The translations under genes and the position numbers were made by a program. Of a stretch of DNA of 64,000 bases, positions 3,545-44,091 are shown one piece after another. The DNA is from Ostreococcus lucimarinus (Eukaryota), in the NCBI GenBank assembly GCA_000092065.1, contig CP000590.1; one strand, written 5' to 3'. The notes below the pieces were generated by a model, which worked only from the letters and a program-made list of their open reading frames with translations, was not told where the DNA came from and did no database searches. The first letter of the stretch is position 1. Every line of letters begins with the position of its first letter.

Positions 3545-3991
3545 ATGGCGTCGCGCGCGCTCGCGAACCTGCTCGTCGCCGGCGGCGCCGCGCTCGCGCG
3601 CGCGGCGTCGCAGGCGTACCGCCAGGCGCTCGCGAACGCGCAGCGCACGGGCGTCGCGAGCGAGGCGGCGAACGCGGCGTCGGGCGCGCGGGGGGCGTTC
3701 GGGAGGAAGGCGATGACGGCGGAGGAGGCGCGACTCGTGCTGGGGGTCGAGGCCTCGGCGACGTACGCCGAGGTGCTCGCGCGGTACGAGCGGCTGTTCG
3801 CGAGCAACGAAAAGGGTGGGTCGTTTTACCTGCAGAGCAAGGTGTACAGGGCGCGGGAGAGCCTGGAGAGAGAGTACGACGAGGAGACGGTGCGAAGGGA
3901 GCGGGAGGCGGCGGCGGCGCGAAGGGACGGGACGCAGGGGGTCGTGGAGGACGGACGCGAGGCGGGGGGGGGGGGCGCGTCGTCGTCGTGA
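3545..3991 (+). CDS. PAM16: Mitochondrial import motor subunit PAM16/TIM16 (Magmas-like J-like domain)
   Basis: MTAEEARLVLGVEASATYAEVLARYERLFASNEKGGSFYLQSKVYRARESLE matches the degenerate J-domain of Pam16/Magmas. The size (148 aa) is typical. Confidence 0.8.
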   Translation: MASRALANLLVAGGAALARAASQAYRQALANAQRTGVASEAANAASGARGAFGRKAMTAEEARLVLGVEASATYAEVLARYERLFASNEKGGSFYLQSKVYRARESLEREYDEETVRREREAAAARRDGTQGVVEDGREAGGGGASSS

Positions 3992-4045
3992 ACGACGGCG
4001 GCGGCGCGCGTTTCGCGTTTCGCGTTTTAATGAAAGAGCTAGACG

Positions 4046-7000
4046 TTATAGAGGTTGAGGAGAATGGACGGTCGCGGCGATGTGGTGGCGAGCGAAACCG
4101 AGGGCGAAGGTAGCGGAGGCGCGATGACGCTCGACGACGTCTTCGAGCGCGGAGTTGAACTCGGTCGCGTCCGAGGCTTCGGCGGCGAACCACGCGAGAG
4201 CGCGGGATTTGGCGTCTTCGGCGTCCGCGATGAGGACGCCACACGCGGTCGAGCACGCGCGTCTGAACGTGTGGATTTCTGCCGATCGACTCGCGCGTTC
4301 CGCGCGCTCGCGGACGTCGCTGCCGCCGCACACGAGCGCCATAAATCGGGCGAGCGAATCGTAGGATAACGCGTGAAACGCGGCGGGGATGACGCCGCGC
4401 GCGAACATCGCGGGAGCGCTCCCGCTTTCGATCACGTTTTTCGGCCACTCACACAGTTTTGCGATGGCGTCAAATACGGTGTCCATGCGCGATTGCGACC
4501 AATCGTTGTCGACGACGACGTCGAGAAGCGCGAAGTCCACGTCTCGCGCGAGATCCGCTTGGGCGTTCGCACGCACCGGCGTACGTTTTGTCGCTCCGGT
4601 CTTGAGCTGATCCAACAGCGCGCGAATATTCGTCCAACTGACCGTCGCGTCGCAATCGACGATTTCGGTGCGCGCGCGATTTGCGATGGCGTCGAGCAAC
4701 AAGACGCGTCTTCGGAGCGAGTCGCGCGCGTCTGAAAAATACCACGCGTACGGGATTTCCGTGTTTTCATCGCCATGAGCGCTCGTTTCGATCGGATTCG
4801 ACCACCACTCCGCGCTCGACAGTGCGGGATCTTTTCCACAAGGCGCGAGCCAGGCCGGGTTGGTTTTGAAATCGTCCAAGTACGTCCACGCGTCGCTCGA
4901 TTCGTCGTCTTTGTCCCAGCGCGCGGTATCGGCGTTCGTGCGCGTCAAATCGCACACGTCCTCGGCGTACTCCATCAACCCTTCGAGCATGTTCAATCGG
5001 AACTCATCGATGTTGGGAAAATCATCCATGTCGCCCGCGAGGCGGTTGATGCCGTTGATGCCGATCATCAGATTCGCCGTCATGCCTGCGGCGATGGAGT
5101 GCGCGTCTCGAATCGTGCGGAAAAACTCCGCAAACTCGAGAACTTTCGTGTACTTTCCATTCATCGCAGCTAAAGTGGCGCTTTGTGAAACTTGCCGCTC
5201 GATTTCATGGCGTAACTGCTGTAGACGAGTGCCCAAAAATTCCTCGGTGATGCCGGGAGGCGCGCCACTCGAGCACGCGGGAAGGGCGTGATGCAACAGC
5301 GTAGACATCTGCACGTGCTTCATATCCACCAACTCCAACGTTTCGAGCGCCAGACCAGCGGCGCCTAGGAGCGTGTAGATCGCGGTCAAGCTGAACCTCA
5401 ACGACGCGTTGTATGGCGATTTCTTCAAGCCAACCTCGAGCGCCGCGGCGGCGGCGTAAAGCGCGTTGACGGCGCCGTCGTCGTCTCCATTTTCTTTGCA
5501 CGCAGCCGCTTCGCCGGCGAGTGCGCACGATGCTAAATACGGGAATACGTCTATGGCGGTTGGTTCTCGCGCGTCCGCATCGGCGAACAGATTCATATGA
5601 TCCCAGTACAAATTCATGAACCGACTCGCCGCGGCGCGGCCGCGGAGCGGCATCGACGCCGCTGGCGAATTCCTCGCGACGCCGTGCCAGGACGGACAAC
5701 ACGCGTTTAAATCGACACATATGAGCAGTGCAGACGTCACCCTCCGCAAAACCGTGATCGCGAGCTTCTTCGAAGCATCGTCTCCCGTCGTGACGCTCGG
5801 AATATGTTCCTCGCCGCGCCCTCGAAGTGTTTCGATCAGCCATTCGCGAGCACCGTCGGCGCCGCGAAGCGCCTGCGCATATCTTCGCATATCCTGCGCA
5901 CAACTGGTCCATGCCCCGAAACGTTCGTGATACGTCGCAACAGCCTCGGCGAGCGCACGATACCGCGTGTCTTCATCGCCTTCGTCTAATAACCTATACA
6001 TCAAGTCCACCTGCAAAATGTACGCCCCACGCCCGACTTCGCGTTCGCCACCCTTTTCCTCGGCGTTGGCGACGACGCTCTCGACAAACTTCGTCGCAGC
6101 GACGATATCGATGGACTTCATTTTCGGTCGAACGGTCGGAAAGTTCGATATGCGAGGAACTGATCTCCCGGATATCGACAATTTAGCATCCATCTCCTCG
6201 GCCAACGCCGCGTCGCCGCGACACAAATCCAAAATCGCGTTCATCGACATCCAATCATCCGGGGCGAGCTCGAGAACCTTTTCGTGATGCTTTCGCGCTT
6301 CCGCCATCTTCCCCGCCTTGAGGGCGTAACGCGCCCGCATGCGTTCGCGCTCGATCGGCATCGGCACGCACGTGTCTGCGAGCGCCGACTTCGTCAAATC
6401 GTACGCCTCGTCCGTTTGCCCCATCAACGCCATCGTCATCGCGTACATCGAGAACGAATCCTGATCCTTGATTTCATCCTTCCCACGAAGCTTACCAAGC
6501 ATCCCATTCGCGAGTTTCAACAGCGTTTCCGCCCCCATCCCGTTAGTTTCGCCGCTGGAAGTCGTAGTCTTCGCCTCCGCCGCCTCCGCCTCGCGTTGCG
6601 CCAACATCGACGTTATGGCTTTCAACAAATCCTTCGTATTCCCAGTCGCCTTATACATTCGCATGGCCACGCTCTGTTGTTTTCCGAATTCCCACGTCTC
6701 GCCGTAATCCGCGTACAGCGTCTGTAGCGACGTCATGTGCGTCGGATTCAGTCGCAGCGTGTGTTCGAGCAGCTTGCGCATTTCGCTCCGCCTGGACATC
6801 TCTTTAAACGTCATCAGCACCACGCGCAAGACGTCTTCGTCCACCGCGCCCTCGTCACGGATCGCGACGGCGATGTTCAATGCGTCCTGTTCGTTCGCCA
6901 TCGCATCCGCGCGCCACAGCGCGAGAGCTTTCAGCGCGCGCGCGAGTTGGAAACGCGGATGCTTTTTGAGCGTCTTGTCGAGCGACTTTAACGCCCGCGC

Positions 7001-9909: not shown

Positions 9910-10161
9910 CGACTCTTTCGCGCGCGCGGCGTCGATCGCGGCGCGCGGCGTCGTCGCGGTAGATCTAGGTATTAAAACTTCAAATCGCATCGCTCGGTCG
10001 GCGTCGCCGCGTTCGCGTTCGCGGCGCGTTCGCTCGCGACGCTTCGCCTCGTTTCGCTCCCTCGAACGAGCTCTGAAATCGACGCGCTTTCGCGCGCAAA
10101 CTGTTGACATTTTTCAAAATTCGAACCGCGCGCGCGCGACGCCGCACACGCGGTCGTCGCC

Positions 10162-12606
10162 ATGGAGCGCGCGGTTCGCGAAGCGCACAGACGCGGGGGC
10201 GTAGAGCGCGCGACGTCGTCCGACCGCGGTGCCTCGCCGAGCGCCGCGCGCGCGGTGACGCCGGCGACGTTCTTCGCCCCGCTCATCGCGCGCGGCGGAT
10301 GGCGCTTCGTCGGACACGGTGCGCGAGCGCAGACGTACGGCGCGATGACGCTGGTGCCGCCGGGACACGAGAAACGGTTGAGAGGGAGTAATGCGCCGTG
10401 CATGACGCCGGGAGAGGAGTGGGAGGACGCGGACGACGAGGAGACGAGACGCGCGCTCAAGGCGTGCGGACTGCTCGTGGCGAAGAACGCCGCGCTGATG
10501 GATAAACCGAAAGCCGGACGGTCGAAACCTGCGCGCGTTGGGTTGCGAGACTACATCGCGCAAAATTTGAAGTGCATGATAAGCGCGATGGTGGCGATGC
10601 GGGTGAGCGCGACGGTGTATAGACATAAACGTTGGACGTTTGAGTGCTTCCGAGAGGTGTACCGAAAGCGCATGGAGTTGCGCAGGCGTCTCGAAAACTC
10701 ACGGGTCAGTGCGCTGGGGAAGGAGTCTCAGCGTTCGCTGACCACGCTTTTGCGTGCTTTCGACACGATGATGGAGCAAATGTGTGATCCTCGCGGGAAC
10801 ATTCGCGCGGCGTTTTACGACGGGATGGTGGCGTGTCCGTGGGACGTCGACTACGAATGGCAACAGAATGCAGCATTTCACGAAGACTTGTACAGCGTGC
10901 CGTACGCGACGAATGACGACCGCGATATGACACACTCATACGAAGTGCCAGATTTACCGGAGGCCTCACATAAGCGCGTGTTCGAAGGACAAGATTCGAT
11001 GTCGCAAGATTCGCGCGCGTCCACGGGCACGGACGACGCCGGGGTGATTGGCGGCAAGCGCAAGCAAGCCGATTATGCCGACGGTGTCACGGTGCGTCGG
11101 TGCCGAATCAAGCCTAGCATGGATGAGATTCCATCCATCGTGGCGTTAGAAATGGCCGCGGAGATTGACGTCGTTGCCGCCGCGACGGCACACTTCTTCG
11201 CCACGTGCGACTTATGCACCGATGGGCCAACCTTCCATGAGTATTTGACGCTGGTGACGTCAGCGTACGATTTTGCGTTCGCGACGGAAATGCAACTGTC
11301 ATTAGAGAACACGGTGATTCCTCAGATGCGCGAGAAGCAGTTTCCAGATGACGCCACTTTCCACTACACGCTTCTCGCGCAGTGCTACTCCTCGTCTTCT
11401 CAAGCGACGCAGTTACTCAAGCTACTCAGCAGCGATCCGAATCCGTTATTACACATCTCGTTGATGCAACGAATTGAAGGCGTATTCATCACGTCCAGAG
11501 ATGGACCCGACGATAAAGCAGACGCGAGGTTTGATCGTCTGATGCGGGACTACGCTGAAAGAGTGGCGTCGGCTCATCACAAACGACCGTGCTCCGTCAA
11601 TGGCTCGCATATGCAGTTGCACTATCCTCCGCCGATTCGCACGTGGATCGAAACGTGCAAATTATCGAATAGCCAACTTTACTCGCCCGCTGTGCCGAGT
11701 TTCGAGGCGCTAATCGAACTGCGTAGCTCATCGCCAAATGGTTGGGTGGAAATCTCGCGCGAAGGCACGGGCTATTGGACGGCCGTGATGACGAAGTGTG
11801 GCATACCCGCGCAGGCGGTGAACGTGCGCCTGGATATCAAGCGATACGGCCCAGAGGACGCGCGCGAACCTCCTCCTCCTCTTCCGCCGAGCTCAAGGCC
11901 GTTCGTGGGCATTCATTATGACTTACCTGACGTGTGCTCGGAATTTGGCAACTTTGGCTTGCTCCTCAACTGCATGCCTCGAGACGAAGATTTAGCAATT
12001 GAGTGTCTGAGAAATTACACTGGAAGCACAATCGCGTTAGTGGGCGAGTGGGTCGGCTCGACCGCTGGTTCGCGCTTCGTGCGTCGACTCGCAAAAAGGT
12101 TTGAGTTCGCGACCACCACAGTCTTGCCATGGATCGGCGATTCCGCGCACGAGCTCAGTATTTGGAAACGCCGAGCGGAAAAGTTGACGAAGCAGAAGCG
12201 TCGCGACGACGCGCTTTCTCGACGCGACGTGTTCCCCGCGGTGAAGAAATGCCAAGTCGCCGGCTGTCAATCGAAGTCGCGCACTATGTTCTGCTGTCGT
12301 CTCTGTCGCAGCGCCTTCGTGTGCTCCGAGCATCTGCACGCCTTGCATGATGAGTACGATCTCGCGCACGCCACCGAGCACTGCGTACGGCTCCTGCCGA
12401 CGCTCGATAGATTGCGAGGATACGAAGTCGAACTGGCGCACGGTGAAGGCAAGAAGCAAATGCGAAGCGAAACCATCATGGCGTTTAATCCATTCATCGC
12501 GGGTGTCGACTGCTGGATGGTGGACTATCGCAAAAGTTCAAATGACGTGTACGAAGACGTGCAAATAAGCGTGCCCCGAATCGAACGCGTGGAAAACTGG
12601 GAATGA
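10162..12606 (+). CDS. Hypothetical 814-aa protein with a C-terminal Cys/His-rich cluster (zinc-finger-like); low-GC gene
   Basis: A long single ORF starting at an ATG. The C-terminus reads KKCQVAGCQSKSRTMFCCRLCRSAFVCSEHLHALHDEYDLAHATEHC. No family is recognisable for the rest. The gene is about 52-55 % GC against about 70 % for its neighbours. Confidence 0.45.
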   Translation: MERAVREAHRRGGVERATSSDRGASPSAARAVTPATFFAPLIARGGWRFVGHGARAQTYGAMTLVPPGHEKRLRGSNAPCMTPGEEWEDADDEETRRALKACGLLVAKNAALMDKPKAGRSKPARVGLRDYIAQNLKCMISAMVAMRVSATVYRHKRWTFECFREVYRKRMELRRRLENSRVSALGKESQRSLTTLLRAFDTMMEQMCDPRGNIRAAFYDGMVACPWDVDYEWQQNAAFHEDLYSVPYATNDDRDMTHSYEVPDLPEASHKRVFEGQDSMSQDSRASTGTDDAGVIGGKRKQADYADGVTVRRCRIKPSMDEIPSIVALEMAAEIDVVAAATAHFFATCDLCTDGPTFHEYLTLVTSAYDFAFATEMQLSLENTVIPQMREKQFPDDATFHYTLLAQCYSSSSQATQLLKLLSSDPNPLLHISLMQRIEGVFITSRDGPDDKADARFDRLMRDYAERVASAHHKRPCSVNGSHMQLHYPPPIRTWIETCKLSNSQLYSPAVPSFEALIELRSSSPNGWVEISREGTGYWTAVMTKCGIPAQAVNVRLDIKRYGPEDAREPPPPLPPSSRPFVGIHYDLPDVCSEFGNFGLLLNCMPRDEDLAIECLRNYTGSTIALVGEWVGSTAGSRFVRRLAKRFEFATTTVLPWIGDSAHELSIWKRRAEKLTKQKRRDDALSRRDVFPAVKKCQVAGCQSKSRTMFCCRLCRSAFVCSEHLHALHDEYDLAHATEHCVRLLPTLDRLRGYEVELAHGEGKKQMRSETIMAFNPFIAGVDCWMVDYRKSSNDVYEDVQISVPRIERVENWE

Positions 12607-12675
12607 ATTATGCGTGGAATGACACTTAGAATTCTAGAAGCCTATCGATATCGTCTAATACGAAGGAATAATCGA

Positions 12676-13683
12676 TCAACGTTTCGCCGCCGGAGCGCCG
12701 AAAAGGTCTTTTAAAATCTCAAAAGACACAAAACGGATAGAATTTTGCGGCACAACCTTGAGTGTATTCGCCGCCCATCCGCGGAAGAAACCTTTCACGC
12801 CCTCAGTCCGCGCTATTGTCGTGATGGCGTCGTACATCCCGTTGTAAGTTTTGCCCTTCATTTGCATGCGTCGCCGAATGGTGTCGAGCGGGTAGCACAC
12901 GGTGGCGCTAAACGTGCCCGAAGCCCCACCGACGACCAAGTTAGACACCCTATCTTCCTTACCGTTTTCGCCATAGTACATCTTCTTTGCCATGTCGTAC
13001 GACGCAAAGTTAATCGCCGCGTAAGGGGCTATGCCAGCCAACGTCGGCCCGAGACCTTTGTAGAGCGCGCCGACGCCCTCGGTGCGGTACACCGTTCCAA
13101 AGCAGTGCATCATCCCGTTATACCCATGATTCGGTAGCGCCAAGCGTAACCTCACGGTGTCTAACGGGTGCGTGATGGCTGTTCCCGTCATACCCGCCAA
13201 AGCGCCCGCCAAAAGGCGCTGCGGTACCCCAAGCTTGCCTTGTTCGTCCGCCAACAGCGACTTGTAGTAATCGTTAGACGCCAACTGCGCCGCCGCGTAC
13301 GGCGCCACGCGAATGACGTTCACCCCGTTCCCTTTCCAGAAACTCAATATCCCCTCCTCGGCGTAAATCTTTCGAAACGCCTGCCCGACGCTCGTGTACG
13401 CCGTCGCCGACGTCCCGCTCGACGCCATCGCCTGGACTTGAAACAGCAGCTTGATCCGATCCAACGGCGCGCTCGCCGTCCGCGCGATGATTCCCGCGCC
13501 GCCGCCCGCGGCGACCGACCGGGATCCATCCAGCACCGCTAACGCGCGCTCCGCGATCGCGCTCGCCGCGAACGGCGCCTCTCGCGCCGTCGCGCGTCGC
13601 GCGTCCTCGCGTCGGGTCGCGCCGGTGGCGGCGCTTTTCGTCGCCGCCCATCGGCGCGCACGCGCGGCGGCGTCCCCGTCCAT
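12676..13683 (-). CDS. Mitochondrial carrier family (SLC25) protein, most similar to the CoA/adenine-nucleotide carrier subgroup
   Basis: Three carrier repeats with P-x-D/E-x-x-K/R signatures: ASAPLDRIKLLFQVQ, ITHPLDTVRLRLAL and VCYPLDTIRRRMQM. The first ATG is at 13683; the ORF-track start at 13788 is a TTG. Confidence 0.8.
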   Translation of the reverse strand: MDGDAAARARRWAATKSAATGATRREDARRATAREAPFAASAIAERALAVLDGSRSVAAGGGAGIIARTASAPLDRIKLLFQVQAMASSGTSATAYTSVGQAFRKIYAEEGILSFWKGNGVNVIRVAPYAAAQLASNDYYKSLLADEQGKLGVPQRLLAGALAGMTGTAITHPLDTVRLRLALPNHGYNGMMHCFGTVYRTEGVGALYKGLGPTLAGIAPYAAINFASYDMAKKMYYGENGKEDRVSNLVVGGASGTFSATVCYPLDTIRRRMQMKGKTYNGMYDAITTIARTEGVKGFFRGWAANTLKVVPQNSIRFVSFEILKDLFGAPAAKR

Positions 13684-13832
13684 GGCCGTCGATCGCTCGC
13701 GCCGCGACGTTCGCGCGTCCTCGAGCGCGCGCGCGGTCGAGCGCGCGCCGCGCGTCGTCGTGTGCGCGCGGCGCGATTCTATCCACAACGCGTCGGGACG
13801 AAAAAGCGCACTCCGTCGCGCGCGATCGCGCC

Positions 13833-14297
13833 ATGCACGCCGGCGCGCGCGCGACGTCGTCGTCGACGACGAGCGCGCGGCTCGGATGGCTCGTCGCGCT
13901 CGCGTTGGCGGCGCTGCACCTCGCGCGCGGGGTCCGGACGGTCGGGACGCGGCCGAGGAACGCGGCGGGGGCGTTCGTGCTCCACGTCGAGCTCGAATTC
14001 AAGACGGAGGCGGCGGCGAAAGAGCTGGTGACGGCGTGGGCGCGGTGCGCCGATTGGTGCAGGGCGAACGAGGCGGGACTGATGCACTACGAGATCGCGC
14101 GGAGCCAGACGGATCCGCTCAAGTATGGCATATTCGAACGGTACGCGAGTTTGGACGCGTACGCGTCGACGCACAAGTCGACGGAGGCGTACAGGACGTT
14201 TCGCCCGAAGATGCAGGCGTTGCAAGACAGCGGCGAGCTCGAGGTGAGTGGTTCGTCGTATTTCGAACTCGGCCACGGGTTCGTGTCGGGCTCGTGA
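13833..14297 (+). CDS. ABM-domain (antibiotic biosynthesis monooxygenase / Dabb-like stress-responsive) protein with an N-terminal targeting peptide
   Basis: FVLHVELEFKTEAAAKELVTAWARCADWCRANEAGLMHYEIARSQTDPLKYGIFERYASLDAYASTHKSTEAYRTFRPKM has the ferredoxin-like ABM fold signature. It sits head-to-head with the carrier gene, 150 bp away. Confidence 0.6.
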   Translation: MHAGARATSSSTTSARLGWLVALALAALHLARGVRTVGTRPRNAAGAFVLHVELEFKTEAAAKELVTAWARCADWCRANEAGLMHYEIARSQTDPLKYGIFERYASLDAYASTHKSTEAYRTFRPKMQALQDSGELEVSGSSYFELGHGFVSGS

Positions 14298-14360
14298 CGC
14301 GAATCGTAGCGTGGTCGTGTGTAGAATAGAGTTGAAATAACAGTTGGGCGGAAACGCGCG

Positions 14361-15304
14361 TCAGCAAAATGGTAGACGCGTGTTCGCGGAACGTCGAACT
14401 ATGGCGCTCGACACCGGAAACGCGTCGCACGCGCTACCGGGAGTGTCAAACGAAACCGCGAACACGCTTTGTCGAGGCAAAACCAAGGGCGACTCGGCCC
14501 AAATGTTGTCCCAGTTGAGCGCGGACACGTCCGCGTCGAGCGGCACCGGAACCGCGAACACGCGATGCTGACTATTGATCTCGCGCGCGTGTTCGGCGTT
14601 TTGCGCGCCAATTCTTTCGAAAGTCACGTAATCCCCGGGATAAAACGTGTGCGACGCCTCGACGGTGATGACGGCGTACCTAGCGTGTTCGTTGAAGCAC
14701 TGAATGTTTGTCACGACGTGTCGCTGGTTGCACTCCTTCACTTCTTCCTCAACTTGGCCCTGGCGAAGAGGGAAACCATTCCTAGATTTACTCTTTCGCC
14801 GCTGGCGATTGTTCATGCTCGCCGCTCGCCAGTATCCTCCGACGCGAATGGCGCGAGCGTCGACGGCGTCCGGCGCGGTGGACGCGACGTGCTTTCGCAA
14901 CCTCTCGGGCATGTCGTCCCACGAGAGCCAACGCACGTTATTAGCGTCGATGACGGAAAGTAACGTGCGTCCATCTCGAGACTTCGTCGCGTGTGCTTCG
15001 CGATTCGCGCTCGACGCTACGTTGGGCTGAACCTCGCGCAGCACCGGCTTGGGCGTCGTCGTCGTCTCCGTCGTCGTCTCCGTCGTCGTCTCCGTCACGA
15101 CGTCCTCCGTCGCGTCCTCCACGACCGCCGGCGTCGGTTCAGCATCTATATCTACCCCTAGTCCTAATAATAACTTCTTCCTCTGCTCGATCGCGCGCTC
15201 GTCCTCGCTATCGTCCTCCTCTTCGACGTACTCCACCGCGAGCAGCTCCGCCGACGCCTCGTCATCCATCCCGAGCGCCTGCCCCAAAACGCCCTCGATA
15301 TCGA

Positions 15305-34955: not shown

Positions 34956-37900
34956 CTAGTACATAGCGTCTCGCTGAGACACCTTGAGGAGTACGAACGC
35001 CAACGCGAGATAGCACGACATGATGGTGAACAAAACCGTGATGTCGTGGGAAAATACCTCGTGCGTCGAGCCAAAACTAAAGAACTTCAGTACCTCTTTG
35101 CCATCCACGGGGACTTTGATGGGACCTTCTTGCGGAGGCGTATCGGTCGGTTTAGAATCGATTAGCTTCGGCGTAAAGTAAAATGTTCCAGCGTCGAGGA
35201 ACTCGTTTATCAAGAGCGCCTCGAATGCGTAGTTGACGAAGGATAAATCCTCGAGCCATGTCACCGCGACCGATCCGCCCGAATGAGGATCTTGCTTGTT
35301 CAGTAAGAATCCGCCGCACAGAATGGATATCAACAAGGCAAGAAGACCAATGACATTTGCGGAGGCGTTACTCGGACTGACGATACCGACACACATGCAC
35401 AGCGCCGACGCGGCGACATTGGTCATGATCAAAATCAACGCACAGCACAGTGCATTCGTCAGGTTGGCGTGCAAACCTACCATCCAATAGGTAATGAATG
35501 CAAACAATAGGGGAGGAGTGACGCGTAAAATCACGACATCGAAGAGGACGACGGCTGTGAAGTACGCATTGGTGCCGTACACACCGCTCGCTCGCTCGCG
35601 TCTGAACAGAATTTGATCCTCTTTCCATATCGGCAAAGAGGAGAGCGACATGAGCGTCAGATACAGAATGATGAAGAATAAACTGCCCATCCTATTTTGT
35701 ATCCCGCCCGTGTCTCGTCCACTGTTCCAAAAAATCAAGCCGAGTGCGATTGACATGCCTGCCGTAGACGCAAAGTGCAACATCAACAAAAACGGATGAC
35801 GAAAGGTCACTCTTGCGAGCCGTTGCCAAAGCAAGCACACTTGCTTGACGTACGGACTAACGTATTTCGGTACGATCAACGGTGGTTCATCGGAATCTTC
35901 GTATCGAATCGTCAAGGTGTCCGCGATGAGCAACGCGCTTTCGGCGACCTCGCTCTCGGTAAACGCTTGCACCATGCGCTTTACGTCCGAGCGGGGACTC
36001 TTCAGCACGACGTCCAGCATGTAGTCCGCGATGTGCAAGTCCGCGGAAGGCAAGCTGACGAACGACATGGAGTTGAAGTGCGCTGAAGCGAGTGCAGACG
36101 GACCAGAGTAAACAACGCTCCCGTCGCCACTCAGTACCAGGACGCGATCAAGCAGTCGGAAAATGTCTGGTCGTGGCTGGTGAATGCTCAGCAATACCGT
36201 CGTGCCCATCGCGCCGAGACCGGACAGGATATCCACTACCTTGGCGGCGTTCGTACTGTCCAGCCCAGTCGTGGGCTCGTCCAGGAACATAATGCCAGGG
36301 CTCATCAAAAGCTCCGTGGCGATGCTCACACGGCGCTTTTCTCCACCGGACAAGCCGCGCTGGAACTGGTCACCAATGAACGAGTCAGCGAGCTTCTCAA
36401 TGCCGAGAATCTGCATCGTCGAGTCCACGCAACGACAAATATCATCTAAAGGCGTTTCGGCTGGAAGCCGAAGTTTGGCGTGAAACAACAAGTGCTCGTA
36501 TACAGTTGCGTTACCTGGCAAAACATCGTCTTGGGTAACGTATCCGCTCAGGCGACGAATCTGAGATGACACCATGGGTTGTCCGTTTACACGAATGTCG
36601 CCGCGAATAACATGCGTGGATGGTGCTCGCCCTGCAAGAATATCCAACAGCGTCGTTTTCCCAGCACCCGATGGTCCAAGCATGGCGAATAAATCAGCAT
36701 GTTGCTCATGACAGGTGATCGAACCATCGCGCGACGTTCCTATGGAGTTCACTGGGCCAGCCACGCCCGTGACGTTCTTCAACACCCGGCGCCCAGACTT
36801 CAACGTGCACACTACGTCAACCCATGACAAGATGTACGGCTCGCGCGCATTGCCACTCTCGCTTAAAAGTGAAAGTGATAGATCTTCTTCATCAAGAGCG
36901 CTCGAAAACAATCCATTGCTTTCGGTATTGTCTAATACGAGACTGTCGGTTGGTTGATGTGCAAATCGCTCGCGCGCATCGGCAAAGTCATCCGCAACAT
37001 CTACTATTTGGGACGTGCCACTATTATTGTAACCATCCACCCTTCCATCGAACGAATCTGAGTCTTGCGCGGAGGTTTTTAGGAAGACGTAACAACCAAA
37101 TGCAAAGAGGAAGCCTTCGGCGATCAGAAACGTGACATCCCAGGGCGCGAGATACGGATGAAACCCGAACGTGAAAAGCACTTTCTCGCCGGGGACTGGA
37201 ATTTGCTTTGGAAGCTTCGGTCCGCTGGTGCCACTGGCGTTGCTCCAGCTTTGAGTAAGCGTGAATGTCAATGGATTGTCGACAAACTCGTTGACGACGA
37301 GCGCCTCGTAGCCGTGACTTATGAAACTCAAGTCGGCGATCCAGCGTGCATACCACGGAATGTGGTCTTTGTTCAGCAAGAACCCCCCAAAAAGAATCGC
37401 GAGTAAAAAGCACAGCGAAGCAACCATGTTCGCCGCAGATACGTTCCGATTCGCGGCGCCGACCGCCATGCACAAACACGTAGCGACGATGTTCGTCAGG
37501 ATCAACACGAAGACAAATTTCAACAGATTCAACTGACCACCCTCATTCAAACCGATCATACCGTACGAGAAGAATCCGAAGAAAAACGGAGGCAGGACAC
37601 GCATTGGTAGCAGATCGAATAATAGCATGCTCACGAAATATGCATCTGCGCTGTATACTCGACTCGCTCTTTCGCTCTTGAAGAGTAAACGATCCTCCTT
37701 CCAAACCGGCAGCGAAGACAATGACATTAATGTCAAAAAGAGCAAGATGAAGAATAAACTGCCCATCCTATTTTGGATACCTCCTTGATTTGTACCACTA
37801 TGCCAGAAAATCCCACCGACACCGCAAGCGACGACGAAAGACGAAATGAAGTGCACGTAAATCAAAAATGGATGCCGGTACATTTGCCGGAGCAACCGTC

Positions 37901-40151
37901 CACAAAGAAGCTTGACTTGCGTTCTAAACGTCGCTGTGTGCTTCTTATCGACGTCGTCGATTGCATCGCCGTCAATAGAGAGCAAGCTTGGGGAGACGCT
38001 GAATCTTTGTGCGCACAGCTCCGTGTGCGTAACTTTATTTGTAGCCTCTATGTCGCTCTCGGCAAACGCTTGCACCATGCGCTTTACGTCCGAGCGGGGA
38101 CTCTTCAGCACGACGTCCAGCATGTAGTCCGCGATGTGCAAGTCCGCGGAAGGCAAGCTGACGAACGACATGGAGTTGAAGTGCGCTGAAGCGAGTGCAG
38201 ACGGACCAGAGTAAACAACGCTCCCGTCGCCACTCAGTACCAGGACGCGATCAAGCAGTCGGAAAATGTCTGGTCGTGGCTGGTGAATGCTCAGCAATAC
38301 CGTCGTGCCCATCGCGCCGAGACCGGACAGGATATCCACTACCTTGGCGGCGTTCGTACTGTCCAGCCCAGTCGTGGGCTCGTCCAGGAACATAATGCCA
38401 GGGCTCATCAAAAGCTCCGTGGCGATGCTCACACGGCGCTTTTCTCCACCGGACAAGCCGCGCTGGAACTGGTCACCAATGAACGAGTCAGCGAGCTTCT
38501 CGATGCCGAGAATCTGCATTGTCGCTCGAACACGCTTGCGAATTGTACTTTGCCTTGTTTCGGCTGGAAGCCGAAGTTTGGCGTGAAACAACAAGTGCTC
38601 GTATACAGTCGCCGTTCCGGGCAACACGTCCTCGTCGATGACATATCCGCTTACCGCTCGCATATCTTCCACTGACGCGACTTTACCATTCATGAATATT
38701 TCACCAGCGCTGTCGTATACGTTGGAAGACAGTCGCCCGGACAGTCGATCGAGCAAGGTGGTTTTTCCAGCGCCGGAAGGTCCCATGAGCGCGCACATGC
38801 CGCCACGAACGTCGTCCATCCTTCCAGCCATGCCTGAAACGTCATTCAAAATACGTTTTCTCATGCCCTTCACCTCTACATACAGCCCACGCCACGTCAA
38901 TATCGTCGATGGTCCATCACGCGGTTGCATTGTCGATTCGAATCGCCGTACAGCTTCGATAGCTCCTCCCACCACGTCTTCGGTGTCTGCGTTCATGTCA
39001 ACGTCGTGTTCAAAGTACCGAAGACCGGCCTCAACTTTGACGTACGCCCAAGCGGCGCTCACTAAAACTAAAACAATCAATACCATCACGGCTCTTGTGA
39101 TCGTGTCCCCGGTCCAATACACAGGAGGGTCGAAATGGATCGGGCACGACCCGTCGCTGTCGACCATCTCGTACACGCAGCTCCCAGTGTGACACGTCAG
39201 CGCAAGCGTCGGAATGACGCCACTTTGTGTCCAATAACACACATTCGACCCGTCTTCACGAGTGCTATTCACACCGCACCAAAATTTCATCCCCTTGTTG
39301 CCTGGCGTCGACAGCGGATTGCAGGGATGTTGCCAGTACTTTTGCCCGGGGGCGTCTGGAATGCTCCCGCACCCAAAAGCGTTCCGCCCCGGGCACGGCT
39401 CCACCCAAGTTGGCGGACACGACACCACGCCCGCGCTACAATCATACACTGCACACGTCTCCGTCGCAGGCAACGGGTCTATGCACGACGTGATCGTTAA
39501 CGAACACTGCGTAAAGTTCCCGTCCCACACCGCTGGAGCCGCGTACTTGTACTTATCCGGCACATCCAAATTTTGATCCTGTCGCGGCATCCCCGCGTAC
39601 TCCACGACTTCAATTTTGTATTTCGACCGTCCATTCGACACCGTGCCCGGTAATACTCGCATATCGATCCTCGTCTTCGGCTGGAACTTGCAAAACGAAT
39701 CTGTCTTCGCGTCGCCGCCGCATCCGCACGAAAACGTCTTCCCGCCCGCTCCTCCCTCTACGTCCCCGATCGGTCTCAGCTCCTCTTCCGTCGGCGTCCA
39801 GCACTTCGACGTACACGCGCTCGCGCTTCTCAGGACGCCATTCACCTTTCTCTGTCCACACACCGATCGCGTCTGACACGCGTCGCACGTCGTCCCGCGC
39901 CAACCGTCGCCGCAACCAAGATTCGGATCCCCTTTCACCGCGCACGACGCGCAGTTCTCGGGATGCGGCGACGACGTTGCGATCGGCATCGTGCTTCGAG
40001 CGCACGGTGGCGACGTCGTCGCGATGGCGTTCGCGCACTGCGCGTGGGAGTCGGCTATCGAGTTGGCTTTTGCGCAGATTACCAGCGTCAATGCGGCGAC
40101 GAACGCGACGCGCACGACGCGCCGGCGCGCATTTCCGAGCGATGCGCGCAT
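34956..40151 (-). CDS. Full-size ABCG-type ABC transporter ((NBD-TMD)x2) with an N-terminal signal peptide, a Cys-rich ectodomain of about 350 aa and an extra TM helix
   Basis: The signal peptide is MRASLGNARRRVVRVAFVAALTLVICAKANS. The next 350 aa carry more than 40 Cys. A TM helix (AVMVLIVLVLVSAAWAYV) follows, then NBD1 (GPSGAGKTTLLDRLSGR...LSGGEKRRVSIATELL...MFLDEPTTGLD), TMD1, NBD2 (GPSGAGKTTLLDILAGR... with the same signature) and TMD2. ABCG family assignment comes from the NBD-before-TMD order and the VSGG-type signature. Confidence 0.8.
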   Translation of the reverse strand: MRASLGNARRRVVRVAFVAALTLVICAKANSIADSHAQCANAIATTSPPCARSTMPIATSSPHPENCASCAVKGDPNLGCGDGWRGTTCDACQTRSVCGQRKVNGVLRSASACTSKCWTPTEEELRPIGDVEGGAGGKTFSCGCGGDAKTDSFCKFQPKTRIDMRVLPGTVSNGRSKYKIEVVEYAGMPRQDQNLDVPDKYKYAAPAVWDGNFTQCSLTITSCIDPLPATETCAVYDCSAGVVSCPPTWVEPCPGRNAFGCGSIPDAPGQKYWQHPCNPLSTPGNKGMKFWCGVNSTREDGSNVCYWTQSGVIPTLALTCHTGSCVYEMVDSDGSCPIHFDPPVYWTGDTITRAVMVLIVLVLVSAAWAYVKVEAGLRYFEHDVDMNADTEDVVGGAIEAVRRFESTMQPRDGPSTILTWRGLYVEVKGMRKRILNDVSGMAGRMDDVRGGMCALMGPSGAGKTTLLDRLSGRLSSNVYDSAGEIFMNGKVASVEDMRAVSGYVIDEDVLPGTATVYEHLLFHAKLRLPAETRQSTIRKRVRATMQILGIEKLADSFIGDQFQRGLSGGEKRRVSIATELLMSPGIMFLDEPTTGLDSTNAAKVVDILSGLGAMGTTVLLSIHQPRPDIFRLLDRVLVLSGDGSVVYSGPSALASAHFNSMSFVSLPSADLHIADYMLDVVLKSPRSDVKRMVQAFAESDIEATNKVTHTELCAQRFSVSPSLLSIDGDAIDDVDKKHTATFRTQVKLLCGRLLRQMYRHPFLIYVHFISSFVVACGVGGIFWHSGTNQGGIQNRMGSLFFILLFLTLMSLSSLPVWKEDRLLFKSERASRVYSADAYFVSMLLFDLLPMRVLPPFFFGFFSYGMIGLNEGGQLNLLKFVFVLILTNIVATCLCMAVGAANRNVSAANMVASLCFLLAILFGGFLLNKDHIPWYARWIADLSFISHGYEALVVNEFVDNPLTFTLTQSWSNASGTSGPKLPKQIPVPGEKVLFTFGFHPYLAPWDVTFLIAEGFLFAFGCYVFLKTSAQDSDSFDGRVDGYNNSGTSQIVDVADDFADARERFAHQPTDSLVLDNTESNGLFSSALDEEDLSLSLLSESGNAREPYILSWVDVVCTLKSGRRVLKNVTGVAGPVNSIGTSRDGSITCHEQHADLFAMLGPSGAGKTTLLDILAGRAPSTHVIRGDIRVNGQPMVSSQIRRLSGYVTQDDVLPGNATVYEHLLFHAKLRLPAETPLDDICRCVDSTMQILGIEKLADSFIGDQFQRGLSGGEKRRVSIATELLMSPGIMFLDEPTTGLDSTNAAKVVDILSGLGAMGTTVLLSIHQPRPDIFRLLDRVLVLSGDGSVVYSGPSALASAHFNSMSFVSLPSADLHIADYMLDVVLKSPRSDVKRMVQAFTESEVAESALLIADTLTIRYEDSDEPPLIVPKYVSPYVKQVCLLWQRLARVTFRHPFLLMLHFASTAGMSIALGLIFWNSGRDTGGIQNRMGSLFFIILYLTLMSLSSLPIWKEDQILFRRERASGVYGTNAYFTAVVLFDVVILRVTPPLLFAFITYWMVGLHANLTNALCCALILIMTNVAASALCMCVGIVSPSNASANVIGLLALLISILCGGFLLNKQDPHSGGSVAVTWLEDLSFVNYAFEALLINEFLDAGTFYFTPKLIDSKPTDTPPQEGPIKVPVDGKEVLKFFSFGSTHEVFSHDITVLFTIMSCYLALAFVLLKVSQRDAMY
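35951..36418. repeat. Intragenic near-identical tract, copy 2 (in NBD2 of the ABCG gene), matching 38054-38521
   Basis: About 468 bp with 1-2 mismatches at a constant offset of 2103 bp. The ORF-track pairs 36092..36292 / 38195..38395 and 36184.. / 38287.. are identical antisense read-throughs of this tract. Confidence 0.8.
38054..38521. repeat. Intragenic near-identical tract, copy 1 (in NBD1 of the ABCG gene)
   Basis: See the 35951-36418 tract. The flanking regions of the two halves are clearly diverged at protein level (GRMDDVRGGMCALMGPSGAGK versus HEQHADLFAMLGPSGAGK). Confidence 0.8.
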
Positions 40152-40313: not shown

Positions 40314-41861
40314 TCAGTCGAAGCTGCACCCTTTGATGCAAGTTCTTATGGCTTTCGCTTTTTCTCTCTCCACGAGCACGACTTTCTCTTGAACCATGTA
40401 AGCCTTCGCTTGACCTCCGCCGTCGGGCATGACCCACATGGGTAACTGCACGGTCGGCACGTCTTGAAGTTTCGCATCTTCGGCTTTGACCCATTTGTAT
40501 TTCGGAGTGAAATCGGGCTTGCCTCCGATGTAGTGGCGAGTGCCGTGTTTGACGGTGGCGGCTTCGTACGAATCGACGACGCGGCGAAAGGTCTGGAGCG
40601 AACCGAAGTGGTGCTCGATGGCTGCGTTCAGCGCGGCGTCGGCGTAGGCGTACAGCGCGGCGTCGCGAGTGGTGACATTCTTGATGGTCACTTCGAGCGC
40701 TTCTTTGTCTACCTTATCCACGTTAGTGCCGGTGTTGGAGAAGACGTACCGCAAATCCCGCACGCCAGCTATTTTCCCTACGACGTGCAGAAATTCGTTG
40801 AAACGTTCGGTAGTCCCGACAACATCAAACTGCCCCACGAGCGCCTCGACCCGCGCCCACTTTTCATCGCTCACCGTGATGCAGTCTTTCGTCCACTTAT
40901 CGTTTTTCTCATACGTCGGCGCGCGCAAGTGATGGACGCACTCCTCCCACAACAGCTCGCGCGTTTGCATATCCTGTTTCGTCGCCGCCCACTCGTGCAA
41001 GCTACGCCCCCACACGTTCTTCGTTGACTCCCCCGCTTGTTCTTTCTTTATTTCTTCCTCCATGCCATCGTGCACGTAATATGCGTAGTAACTCGCGTAC
41101 TGATCAACGGGTTTCCGCACCAAGTAGGACGTCGTCACCGAACACGAATCCGCAAACTCTTCCTTCATCGCCAACACATCCTCAAACACCACATTCGCGA
41201 AGTTCTGCGCGTTCCAACTATTTGGATAGTGCCCTCTCACCTCCACGAGCGTTCTCGGTGGCACTGCACGCGTGCCATTCACGTACGCTCTCGCCGCGTC
41301 CGTCCACGCCGTCTTCAGCGCCTCCCACTCTTCCCGCGAAGCGCCGTACGGTATCGGATACTCCCACTCACCGAGCACCGTCTGCCTTTCGAACCAAAAC
41401 CGCACCGTCGTCCCACCCGTTTTACTGACGTGTCTAAATAAGTGCAGCGCGCACGGCTCATCGCTCTTCGCCGTCGCCGTCGCCGTCGTCGTCGCGTTCG
41501 AAGTCGTCGTCGCCGCCGTCGCGTCCCGCTCGCCGACGCTCGCCGACGCCGTCTCCAACTCTCGCGCCGTCTCCACCGATCCATCCGCGCTCGTCGCGCC
41601 GGCGTCATCGCGCGCGTTCGACGACTCGTGAATGCTCTGTTCGGCGACGTCGAGCGCGACCGGGGCGCGCCAGACGAGCTCTGGTTTGGCTACGAAGACG
41701 GTTGAAGTAATCTGCGTTCGCGAGCTCGGCTCGACCGAGTCGCCGTCATCGAACGATTGCCGCTCGGCGCGCCAGCGGTGCGCGGATACGACGACGAGAA
41801 CGGCCAGGACGAGCGCGGCCGCGGCGCGAAAGGCGGTGAACCATCGCGCGCTAGCGCTCAT
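40314..41861 (-). CDS. Type II membrane sulfotransferase-like protein (Sulfotransfer_2-like 5'-PSB / 3'-PB motifs)
   Basis: An N-terminal TM anchor (WFTAFRAAAALVLAVLVVVSAHRW), then LHLFRHVSKTGGTTVRFWF (a 5'-PSB-like K-x-G-T-T) and YLVRKPVDQYASYYAY (a 3'-PB-like R-x-P-x-x-x-x-x-S-x-Y). The first ATG is at 41861. Confidence 0.5.
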   Translation of the reverse strand: MSASARWFTAFRAAAALVLAVLVVVSAHRWRAERQSFDDGDSVEPSSRTQITSTVFVAKPELVWRAPVALDVAEQSIHESSNARDDAGATSADGSVETARELETASASVGERDATAATTTSNATTTATATAKSDEPCALHLFRHVSKTGGTTVRFWFERQTVLGEWEYPIPYGASREEWEALKTAWTDAARAYVNGTRAVPPRTLVEVRGHYPNSWNAQNFANVVFEDVLAMKEEFADSCSVTTSYLVRKPVDQYASYYAYYVHDGMEEEIKKEQAGESTKNVWGRSLHEWAATKQDMQTRELLWEECVHHLRAPTYEKNDKWTKDCITVSDEKWARVEALVGQFDVVGTTERFNEFLHVVGKIAGVRDLRYVFSNTGTNVDKVDKEALEVTIKNVTTRDAALYAYADAALNAAIEHHFGSLQTFRRVVDSYEAATVKHGTRHYIGGKPDFTPKYKWVKAEDAKLQDVPTVQLPMWVMPDGGGQAKAYMVQEKVVLVEREKAKAIRTCIKGCSFD

Positions 41862-41922
41862 GGCGCGTTGCGCTGTGAGGCGCTCGCGCGCGGCGACTAC
41901 GACTACGTTACACCGAGGAGCG

Positions 41923-44091
41923 CTAGTCGCTCCAATCGGAATCGTCAGAATCACCACCGAGGTGTGATCCAGACAGGTCTAATTGCGCGGCTATGGCGGA
42001 GTTGAGCTCGCCGAGACCTTTGTTCGGTGGCGGTGGCGGTGGCGGTTTCTTTGGCGGCGAAATCGAGCGCGGCGGCGGCGGCGGCTTGGGCGGTTTGCCG
42101 ACGCTCGGGGGTGGCGACGGAGGAATGTTACGCGAGGATGGCGGCGGTGGTGGCGTTGGCGCTGGAGGGGGTGTTGTACCGCGCGAGGGCGTCGGCGAAG
42201 TCTCCGAATCAGAGATCACCGAGGACGTCGCGGATGTGAAATCGCTCGCGCTCGCTTGTTTCTTGCGAAGAGAAACGCCAGCTTGGATCGACGCCATGAG
42301 CATAGCGTGCGGATCGTTTGGATTCGGTGGATTTGGTGGTGATGGTGCAGCGTTCTCGTCCGGTGGCGCGTGCCCGCCAGGCGGTGGTGGAGGGGGAGGA
42401 GGTGGTGGAGGGGGAGGCGGAGGGGGAGCGCTCGGCGCGCTCGGCGCGCTCGCCTGCATCGAAGCAGGAGGCATCGCCACAGGGGCAGAACTTCCAGGGC
42501 GTGGAGGCACAGGACGTCCTTCTGCTAAGGCCTGGCGCGCCGTTGCTTTCCATTGTTTGTAAATAGCTCTCTCCTCCTTCGCCGCGCGGCGTCTCGCGCG
42601 ATCCGCCCGACGCTCCTCACGCTCGATGCGCGCACGTTCCATCGTCGTCAGCGGTCTCGATGGTGTTTCCGCCGCGAGTTCAGCGGCTTGCCACAGGGCA
42701 GTGTTTTCGCCGTTCGCGTTTGACGCAGGAGCGTCGCGATTAGAGGCATCGTCATCACGAAGTAACATGCCCCACATCTCTGCTTCCATCTTCGCCAAGT
42801 CCGCGCTCGCCCTGGCGAACGCTCGCAAGCCGCGCGTGAGCGCATTTCCTGACAACCGGTGAAATCTAGGAAGCTCGTCGCGCATGCGCTCGACTATCAT
42901 GTCGTATCGCTCCTTTGCCTCTTTCATCAAAGCCTCGGCGGCGAGACAATCCGGATCCACCGTGGCGAGCGCTCTGCCTTTTTGGCGAACCACCTCGTCA
43001 TACCGATCGCACGTGATTTCGTAGTGTAAGAGCGTTTCTGCACGATCTTCAAACGTCTCTCGCACCGCACCGAGCATCCGCAAGCAATCCTTGAACTCCC
43101 GCTTGAGCGCTTTCATGTGTTCAACGACTTGCAGCTCGTGCGCGTCCTCGCCAGTCAACGATTCTGCGCAATCTGCAAATGCACCGAGCACGGTTCCCAA
43201 CGACACGCACTTACTTCTACGCGCCAAAGGTCGACCCCAACCTGACTCACACTCTCCCATCGCGCGCGCGCTCTTTCCTAGTTCCAACAGCCTCGTCGCG
43301 TTCACACGCTGTTCCAACTGTTTCATGTACTCTCTCGCGCTCTCTCGAAAGCCCACAATCTGGTCCTCAATCTTCTTCGTGTACTCAATCACTTGCAAAT
43401 ATTGCGGGTCTTCATCCTTGAGCACGCTCGATATCGTCCGCGTGCTGCCGAACATCTGCCCGAACCACGAGGGATTCGCCGCGCTCGGGCTCGACGTTGA
43501 AGCGCCGCCGCCGACCGCCGCCCCTAACATCCGCCGCGCCATCGCATCGACGAACGCCCCTCGATCATTCTCCGTGAGAAACATCAACAGCGCTGTGGAG
43601 TTATACAGCATCGGGTGCTCGCCACATCGCGTCAAAAACTGCACGAGATGTTGCCTTCGCTTTTCGCACGCGTCGCCATCCAACGCCGTCGTCCGCGCGC
43701 GTTCGCCCTCCAATTCCGGCGCCTTCGGCAGCGGCGGGATCACCGCTCCCGGATACGACTCCCGCAATCGCGTTCGCAGCGTGACAAAGTCTCCGTACCG
43801 CCGCTGGACGTCGAACGTGGCGTGTCCATCGCGTAATTCACTTCGGCATTGCAAAATGTATTCTCTCGCCGTCGCGCGCGTTTTGACGCTGAACGCCACG
43901 TGCGCGTCTCGCGGATCGCTCGCGACGAGCGTAGGTGCGGTGAGTTGTATCTTCACCGCCCCGGGTTGTATCTTCTTGTCCCGGCGCGACGACGACGCGC
44001 GCGTGGACGCGACGGATGGCGCCATCGCGCGCGCGAATTTGAAGTCGGTTGCGCGCGGGGGCGGGCGCGGGGGCGTCTCCGCGAAACGCAT
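41923..44091 (-). CDS. Sorting nexin with PX and BAR domains, carrying a C-terminal poly-proline tract and a WH2-like motif
   Basis: PX domain: RRYGDFVTLRTRLRESYPGAVIPPLPKAP. A long helical BAR-like region follows. The C-terminus reads PPPPPPPPPPPPPPPPGGHAPP...DPHAMLMASIQAGVSLRKKQ, a WH2 consensus (LxxxIxxGxxLKK). An alternative ATG lies at 44025. Confidence 0.65.
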   Translation of the reverse strand: MRFAETPPRPPPRATDFKFARAMAPSVASTRASSSRRDKKIQPGAVKIQLTAPTLVASDPRDAHVAFSVKTRATAREYILQCRSELRDGHATFDVQRRYGDFVTLRTRLRESYPGAVIPPLPKAPELEGERARTTALDGDACEKRRQHLVQFLTRCGEHPMLYNSTALLMFLTENDRGAFVDAMARRMLGAAVGGGASTSSPSAANPSWFGQMFGSTRTISSVLKDEDPQYLQVIEYTKKIEDQIVGFRESAREYMKQLEQRVNATRLLELGKSARAMGECESGWGRPLARRSKCVSLGTVLGAFADCAESLTGEDAHELQVVEHMKALKREFKDCLRMLGAVRETFEDRAETLLHYEITCDRYDEVVRQKGRALATVDPDCLAAEALMKEAKERYDMIVERMRDELPRFHRLSGNALTRGLRAFARASADLAKMEAEMWGMLLRDDDASNRDAPASNANGENTALWQAAELAAETPSRPLTTMERARIEREERRADRARRRAAKEERAIYKQWKATARQALAEGRPVPPRPGSSAPVAMPPASMQASAPSAPSAPPPPPPPPPPPPPPPPGGHAPPDENAAPSPPNPPNPNDPHAMLMASIQAGVSLRKKQASASDFTSATSSVISDSETSPTPSRGTTPPPAPTPPPPPSSRNIPPSPPPSVGKPPKPPPPPRSISPPKKPPPPPPPNKGLGELNSAIAAQLDLSGSHLGGDSDDSDWSD

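Follow-up and report, generated by a model that had tools for sequence, protein, structure and literature searches.

We examined a 64,000-nt stretch of the Ostreococcus lucimarinus genome (contig CP000590.1, assembly GCA_000092065.1; hereafter the window, to which all positions refer) and found that its minus strand encodes a full-size ATP-binding cassette (ABC) transporter of the ABCG subfamily in which a signal-peptide-like segment, a cysteine-rich domain and an additional transmembrane (TM) helix precede the first nucleotide-binding domain (NBD). We consider it likely that the protein is a full-size, internally duplicated Adp1-like ABCG exporter with an ectodomain on its exit side, present in Ostreococcus and in many other algae. 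The features of the gene are listed below, with residues numbered in amino acids (aa) and hydropathy given on the Kyte-Doolittle (KD) scale.

34956..40151, minus strand: complete coding sequence (CDS) of the ecto-ABCG full-size transporter, a single uninterrupted open reading frame (ORF) of 1731 aa plus stop codon
40065..40151, minus strand: signal-peptide-like N-terminus, aa 1-29 (MRASLGNARRRVVRVAFVAALTLVICAKA, followed by NS after the putative cleavage site), assigned from sequence features
39096..40064, minus strand: Cys-rich ectodomain, aa 30-352, with 26 Cys and the N-x-S/T sequons N212 and N295
39858..39953, minus strand: EGF-like module, aa 67-98 (C-x2-C ... C-x2-GW-x-G-x2-C-x2-C-x5-C)
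39177..39740, minus strand: predicted 8-stranded beta-barrel, aa 138-325
39033..39095, minus strand: TM0, the extra (13th) transmembrane helix, aa 353-373 (AVMVLIVLVLVSAAWAYV), KD 2.41
38052..38834, minus strand: NBD1, about aa 440-700, Pfam ABC_tran
37062..37922, minus strand: transmembrane domain 1 (TMD1), aa 744-1030, six TM helices, Pfam ABC2_membrane at 744-956, KD peaks at 763, 798, 839, 879, 908 and 1006
35952..36734, minus strand: NBD2, about aa 1140-1400, Pfam ABC_tran at 1152-1295
34959..35846, minus strand: TMD2, aa 1436-1731, six TM helices, the second ABC2_membrane stretch, KD peaks at 1455, 1490, 1535, 1573, 1599 and 1704
38064..38501, minus strand: gene-conversion tract, NBD1 copy, CDS positions 1651-2088, identical to the NBD2 copy at 438/438 nt
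35961..36398, minus strand: gene-conversion tract, NBD2 copy, CDS positions 3754-4191, identical to 38064-38501

In Pfam searches, the 1731-aa protein matched ABC_tran (6.8e-48) and ABC2_membrane (4.6e-74) in two stretches each, with an NBD ahead of each TMD, and a hydropathy scan yielded the TM0 peak followed by six plus six TM peaks, 13 in total. The order in the one chain is signal-like segment, ectodomain, TM0 and NBD1-TMD1-NBD2-TMD2. The first-pass annotation of this DNA had proposed the same layout, which is supported by the ORF, Pfam, hydropathy, a transcript and the conservation of the fusion, while cleavage of the signal peptide is a prediction; the three peptides that it had quoted are all found in the protein, and its 13th TM helix corresponds to the strongly hydrophobic aa 353-373, ahead of the two sets of six peaks. 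The approximately 430 aa upstream of NBD1 are made up of the signal-like segment, the Cys-rich domain and TM0 instead of the canonical cytosolic N-terminus that begins with an NBD, and a 2026 survey of ABC architectures assigned a cytoplasmic N-terminus to ABCGs (PMC13257379). The architecture had also been described as not standard; it is indeed non-canonical for an ABCG but not unprecedented, because fungal Adp1-type ABCGs share its N-terminal plan.

The full-length search returned a 99% identical protein of 1731 aa (P0005), and at least 20 independent contigs from metagenomes carry this 1731-aa form at 99% identity. In other Ostreococcus clades, relatives that span the full length (1734-1784 aa) are 75-80% identical at a coverage of 98-100%. 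P0009 (1734 aa, 99% coverage) comes from the MMETSP transcriptome of Ostreococcus sp. RCC789; in a congener, a single transcript therefore carries both ectodomain and ABCG core. We surveyed the region upstream of the first Walker A motif in all strong full-length matches and found that homologues with complete N-termini carry 24-31 Cys and then one strong TM helix before this motif. This architecture was found in proteins of 1800-2070 aa that probably belong to other Mamiellophyceae (Micromonas-like prasinophytes), in Bryopsis and Caulerpa (Ulvophyceae), Volvox and Astrephomene (Chlorophyceae), Stichococcus (Trebouxiophyceae), Prasinoderma and a pedinophyte, and in the ochrophytes Ectocarpus and Chrysoparadoxa. 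Conservation of the fusion in related algae, which had been put forward as a check on the first-pass annotation, is thus documented by full-length homologues in many algal lineages. Because the neighbouring genes are conserved as well, with the order PX gene, ABCG, TPR gene kept in the 76-kb contig L001 from another Ostreococcus clade, the locus is vertically inherited.

Within L001 (ENA contig myrmidon_3__contig_7800_pilon), the orthologue at 10001-15213 is split by frameshifts into approximately seven short calls, P0003 being one of them. Because intact 1736-aa versions from the same clade (P0007) are present on other contigs, these frameshifts look like residual indel errors in a polished long-read contig and not like a pseudogene. 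In a 391-aa protein from an 18-kb metagenome contig (P0004), a segment of an Ostreococcus homologue (77% identical) that reaches from the last part of the ectodomain through TM0 into the first part of NBD1 runs into an acetyl-CoA-synthetase-like C-terminal part (AMP-binding C domain); it is probably a chimeric metagenome assembly.

The ectodomain differs from the remainder of the protein in its composition. Residues 31-370 contain 26 Cys (7.6% versus 1.4% in the rest), one more Cys is located in the signal peptide and the whole protein has 46, so that the more than 40 cysteines originally attributed to the ectodomain were an overstatement. The even number of 26 would fit 13 disulfides. We aligned 17 ectodomain sequences from green algae and the brown alga Ectocarpus; with 20 invariant Cys columns and another two in which Cys is conserved in at least 90% of these sequences, the enrichment of Cys is not due to chance. 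Seven further residues are invariant in this alignment (W84, E124, K138, Q157, H275, Q309 and Y327), and the sequons N212 and N295 are conserved within the Mamiellophyceae.

A search with a profile built from these 17 ectodomains found only 322 proteins among 1.84 billion representatives at E ≤ 1e-3. Fourteen of the 150 matches listed exceed 900 aa; 13 of these contain a Walker A motif and the remaining one an ABC signature, and the short matches resemble fragments. Because of this result and the conserved residues, we regard the ectodomain as rare, constrained and, among the matches listed, seen only on this transporter. A word-indexed search with the ectodomain alone returned four fragments and missed the 99% identical full-length protein, and it was not used to judge rarity.

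A Pfam scan of aa 1-384 gave no match. At the Pfam threshold, the ectodomain of the window protein had no match, and EGF_2 occurred below threshold (E 0.039) in one of the 17 algal members; curated EGF models did not reach threshold with the algal ectodomain, and the fungal relatives introduced below were likewise sub-threshold. An AlphaFold2 model of the ectodomain based on the 17-sequence alignment (predicted local distance difference test, pLDDT, 83; predicted template modelling score, pTM, 0.76) has short hairpins in the EGF-like part and eight long strands at aa 138-322. Foldseek found nothing at E ≤ 1e-3 in the PDB, where the top matches were barrels like those of fatty-acid-binding proteins (FABP), nitrobindin or lipocalins. 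Nothing significant was found in the viral BFVD, and a link to a prasinovirus protein was dropped after this null search. The predicted fold is best described as an EGF-like module followed by a disulfide-rich barrel whose likeness to calycins is purely topological.

Several sequence properties bear on the topology. The N-terminal hydrophobic core (aa 15-33) is preceded by Arg residues and followed by A-K-A and N; the segment thus has a basic n-region, a 13-residue hydrophobic core (KD 2.87) and A-x-A at positions -3/-1. A hydrophobic N-terminal core is present in 13/13 aligned homologues with complete N-termini, and AlphaFold2 modelled aa 5-25 as a helix with low confidence. TM0 was modelled as a helix at aa 350-374 with pLDDT values of 83-95 and precedes the first Walker A motif in every homologue surveyed. 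Ten of the 17 homologues have more Lys and Arg residues after TM0 than before it, and in six the numbers are equal (16 of 17 taken together); because the window protein is among those with equal counts, this criterion is only weakly consistent with an N-out/C-in orientation. A signal peptide would send the N-terminus into the lumen of the endoplasmic reticulum (ER), which would place the Cys-rich domain outside the cell or in the lumen of an organelle. TM0 would then return the chain and leave both NBDs in the cytosol, where every ABCG needs them. We infer that the ectodomain faces the cell exterior or an organelle lumen and that both NBDs are cytosolic.

The transporter core belongs to the ABCG subfamily by its NBD-TMD order, its combination of ABC_tran and ABC2_membrane and its closest solved relatives. 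By sequence, these relatives are Pdr5 (1.3e-80), Cdr1, ABCG2 (1.7e-76), ABCG25, ABCG16, ABCG1 and ABCG5/G8; ABCA and ABCB matched through the NBD only, at 1e-27 or weaker. All motifs are canonical in NBD1 (Walker A G457PSGAGKT, Q-loop S501GYV, signature L566SGGE, Walker B I586MFLDEP and H-loop S621IHQP) and in NBD2 (Walker A at 1159, Q-loop at 1202, signature at 1267, Walker B at 1287 and H-loop at 1322). Pleiotropic drug resistance (PDR) pumps, such as Pdr5, have one degenerate, non-catalytic ATP site, and a degenerate site of this type was not found in either NBD of the window protein. PDR_assoc (PF08370), ABC_trans_N (PF14510) and PDR_CDR (PF06422) were absent from the Pfam matches of the window protein and from the list for P0005, whereas PDR-specific Pfam domains are present in plant and fungal PDR matches.

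NBD1 and NBD2 of the window protein share an identical run of 153 aa. The corresponding tracts of contig L001 (11685-12120 and 13774-14211) are identical to each other at 428/433 positions and approximately 80% identical to the window tract. Within many algal lineages, the identical runs between NBD1 and NBD2 extend over 150-245 aa, while the NBDs of different lineages are 45-65% identical; in P0039 and P0213, NBD1 and NBD2 are 100% identical at the protein level. The NBD tracts are thus under sustained intragenic gene conversion (concerted evolution). TMD1 and TMD2 are approximately 48% identical, and each has clear orthologues across the Mamiellophyceae, with an ambiguous signal beyond this class. 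Because the TMD1 and TMD2 orthologues are distinct across the class, the duplication is older than the Mamiellophyceae. A literature search on gene conversion between the NBDs of ABC transporters returned nothing relevant.

The identical NBD tract that results from gene conversion explains a set of 1030-aa database entries (P0011-P0021 and P0046-P0051, with P0014 from NCBI), which lack exactly one 701-aa (2103-nt) unit of the full protein and are joined within this tract. Most likely, these entries are assembly collapses; that they are real unequal-crossover alleles is less likely. Because many entries are collapsed to half size across the NBD tract, short-read-based counts of algal ABCG copies and architectures are unreliable.

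Among the sampled proteins, the nearest relatives of each core half outside algae and ochrophytes are half-size ABCGs of fungi, namely of Mucorales and a chytrid, with 35-38% identity over approximately 600 aa and 320-366 bits. PDR and other full-size ABCGs in the set reached at most 237 bits, in pairwise scores from a set that was without yeast Adp1 and half-size proteins of the white-brown complex (WBC) type. The fungal half-size relatives have a signal-like N-terminus, approximately 30 Cys and a TM helix ahead of the NBD. The same plan has been published for Saccharomyces cerevisiae Adp1 (YCR011C), which belongs to ABC-G group VII (Kovalchuk & Driessen 2010) or clade V (Winski et al. 2022). 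In Adp1, a soluble domain with EGF repeats takes the place of a first NBD; the group, of ancient origin in fungi (PMC2848647; PMC9426558), has a poorly known function (PMC2848647). Because Asn-165 of yeast Adp1 is N-glycosylated (PMC3433913), its soluble domain is located in the secretory lumen. The protein has been named Gxa1 as a glutathione export ABC protein (PMC4302092; PMC7470746), and its deletion led to less uptake of a glutathione-coated quantum dot (PMC4225547).

We compared the algal and fungal ectodomains by profile alignment. With stringent hhalign settings, only the EGF-like motif was aligned (probability 88%, 28 columns; hmmsearch E about 1e-7). A greedier alignment against a 30-sequence fungal profile extended over 279 colinear columns with a probability of 95.6% and an E-value of 1.2e-8; after trimming of the signal peptide and TM0, the probability was 88% and the E-value 3e-6, and a reversed-sequence control gave a probability of 0.7%. 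From one end of the domain to the other, Cys-containing motifs were paired, such as VWDGNFTQCSLTITSC with FWVDQVESFYCHLNTC and LALTCHTGSCVYE with IFLSCSSGECLHY, at approximately 16% identity over the aligned columns. The algal and fungal ectodomains are probably homologous. The fungal ectodomain profile also detected relatives in Mucoromycota, Glomeromycota, Basidiomycota and Ascomycota, including a Saccharomycotina yeast.

The protein would function as an ATP-driven exporter of a small molecule. Because both ATP sites are canonical and are kept nearly identical by gene conversion, its motor would be expected to run symmetrically, like that of a homodimeric half-transporter of the ABCG2 or Adp1 type and unlike those of the asymmetric PDR pumps, while the diverged TMD1 and TMD2 would make the substrate path asymmetric. 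At the exit face, where it is anchored beside TMD1, the single ectodomain would most likely bind or receive the exported small molecule or a partner, and signalling by it would be unlikely. The sole experimental lead to a substrate comes by analogy from the closest characterised relative, yeast Adp1/Gxa1, and points to glutathione; judging from the model, a small hydrophobic ligand would also fit the calycin-like barrel. A bolder version, which we regard as a doubtful speculation, makes the ectodomain a built-in extracellular acceptor, in which a disulfide-locked, lipocalin-like barrel would take an exported thiol (such as glutathione) or lipid directly from the ABCG exit as a single-chain 'pump plus carrier'. 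This would be an ancient design common to fungi, green algae and ochrophytes, and the continuous gene conversion by which the two NBDs stay identical across whole algal classes would have been selected to keep the symmetric two-site motor.

Some observations weigh against the assignment as an Adp1-like exporter. The stringent alignment joins the algal and fungal ectodomains over only 28 columns of the EGF-like motif, and the AlphaFold2 model of a fungal (Phycomyces) ectodomain, with a pLDDT of 43, is too poor for a fold comparison. The step from the Mucorales proteins to Adp1 draws on the published description, one NCBI name ('putative ATP-dependent permease') and the pan-fungal profile matches that include a Saccharomycotina yeast. 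Signal-peptide cleavage and the orientation of the ectodomain are predicted from sequence rules and from the analogy to yeast Adp1, and a core identity of approximately 36% would be too low to carry a substrate over from yeast.

The fusion would be an artefact if the 5' 1.1 kb were a separate secreted Cys-rich gene that had been read through, or if a 1030-aa half-size gene like P0014 had been duplicated during assembly. Forms that lack exactly one 701-aa unit are common in databases, one NCBI record included, and an identical tract of 438 nt is the kind of repeat that misleads assemblers. However, there is neither a stop codon nor a change of frame at the junction, and the fusion recurs across more than 10 lineages, with intron-containing genomes and a transcriptome among the sources. 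With 48% identity between them and an orthologue of its own for each in other Mamiellophyceae, TMD1 and TMD2 cannot have arisen by assembly duplication, and the 1030-aa forms are the expected collapse across the identical tract, with both forms present in every clade. We therefore consider an artefact barely credible. According to the first-pass annotation, the protein may be receptor-like or a sensor: the ectodomain would bind a ligand or surface cue and gate or regulate the pump, or the protein would signal instead of transporting. A ligand could be bound by an extracytosolic domain that is conserved, rich in disulfides and equipped with an EGF-like module, and there is one ectodomain per pump. 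The proposal is nevertheless unsupported because no signalling output domain was found with Pfam in the cytosolic parts, which consist of an acidic linker of approximately 60 aa, the two canonical NBDs and the linker between the halves, both linkers being of low complexity. In addition, the ATP sites and TMDs are all intact and conserved, as for a working transporter, the ectodomain is on no other scaffold among the long matches listed and the related yeast protein has been linked to export, which makes a receptor or sensor quite improbable.

A structural or logistic ectodomain, which would help the protein to fold, leave the ER, be sorted, dimerise or attach to a matrix or cell covering without handling the substrate directly, is unlikely. 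It would agree with the protein-protein contacts commonly mediated by EGF-like modules, with the conserved sequons N212 and N295 in Mamiellophyceae and with a fold that has no confident match to a ligand-binding family. Ostreococcus, however, is a naked cell without a wall to which such a domain could attach. Moreover, the same transporter has kept the domain in green and brown algae and, where the homologue is a probable one, in fungi; 22 Cys are fixed and seven residues invariant, and this retention therefore suggests a specific function coupled to the pump. An exporter with a ligand- or partner-binding domain at its exit remains the reading that we favour.

The GC content of the ABCG gene is 0.54, compared to 0.61 for the whole window, and falls to 0.52 between 34001 and 38000. 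The dip lies within the TMDs and the linker between the two halves (GC at third codon positions, GC3, 0.46-0.61), and the GC3 of the whole gene, 0.64, is mildly below the 0.66-0.83 of its neighbours. Amino acid composition accounts for most of the dip. A foreign origin was rejected because of this location of the dip, the small difference in GC3, the conserved synteny and the occurrence of homologues throughout the Mamiellophyceae. Plus-strand ORFs that overlap the gene were set aside as the usual antisense ORFs of high-GC DNA. The neighbouring genes encode a TPR protein, an acidic protein, a 547-aa membrane protein without Pfam match and a PX-BAR sorting nexin, with no functional link to the transporter. 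The 547-aa ORF (40314-41957, minus strand), immediately upstream, has an N-terminal hydrophobic segment; because its GTG start overlaps the stop region of the sorting nexin by 35 nt, its true start is probably a downstream ATG. The sorting nexin (41923-44091, minus strand) is Vps5-like and has a long proline-rich tail. In Ostreococcus tauri, an ABCG11-like ABC gene, ostta09g01615, is reported to be expressed at low temperature and to carry H3K27me3 at higher temperature (2026 preprint); no tie to the ABCG gene described here was found.

Literature searches found no paper that describes the algal ecto-ABCG architecture, and an inventory of Chlamydomonas ABC proteins does not mention such a family. 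An ABCG predicted to bear a structured domain, rich in disulfides, on the membrane's far side is conserved from Prasinoderma to Volvox and in brown and other ochrophyte algae, and this algal clade would greatly widen the evolutionary setting of yeast Adp1/Gxa1, an enigmatic group. The clade further provides tractable algal models for the function of an exit-side domain in an ABC exporter, the Ostreococcus gene being single and intron-free. Should glutathione or a lipid prove to be the substrate, the protein would have a bearing on what picophytoplankton release into seawater.

Compared to known systems, the barrel of the ectodomain has weak matches, below significance, to calycin-type beta-barrels (lipocalins, avidins, FABP- and nitrobindin-like proteins and the APCDD1 barrel). 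The extracellular domains of ABCA1 and ABCA4 and the N-terminal domain of NPC1 receive or deliver substrate at the transporter, and they offer an analogy as luminal or extracellular domains, rich in disulfides, that are attached to a transporter of lipids or small molecules. Neither by sequence nor by fold was a relationship to them found, however, ABCA matches being through the NBD only, and the positions and folds of the domains differ. PDR-type full-size ABCGs (Pdr5, Cdr1 and plant ABCG29-44) likewise have NBD-TMD-NBD-TMD in one chain and supply the top-scoring solved structures, but they have a cytosolic N-terminus, PDR-specific domains and one degenerate site, and their identity to the algal core is approximately 30%. 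The half-size WBC-type proteins (ABCG2, ABCG1, ABCG5/G8 and AtABCG25) share the NBD and the type-V/ABC2 membrane fold, and the symmetric canonical ATP sites resemble those of homodimeric ABCG2; in contrast to the algal protein, they have no signal peptide, ectodomain or TM0, and their extracellular part is the EL3 loop alone.

The Adp1/Gxa1 group has the same succession of a signal peptide, a Cys-rich EGF-containing lumenal domain, one TM helix and an ABCG NBD-TMD unit, with the lumenal location in algae being a prediction. Adp1-type proteins are half-size and presumably dimerise, whereas the algal protein combines a tandem (NBD-TMD)x2 core with just one ectodomain. The ectodomains differ as well, the fungal one having an extra EGF-like module and the algal one an insert (ACTS..PTxEE..GKxFSCxCGGD). 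With fungal Adp1 as the known precedent, what is new is a full-size, single-ectodomain, conversion-homogenised Adp1-like ABCG of algae.

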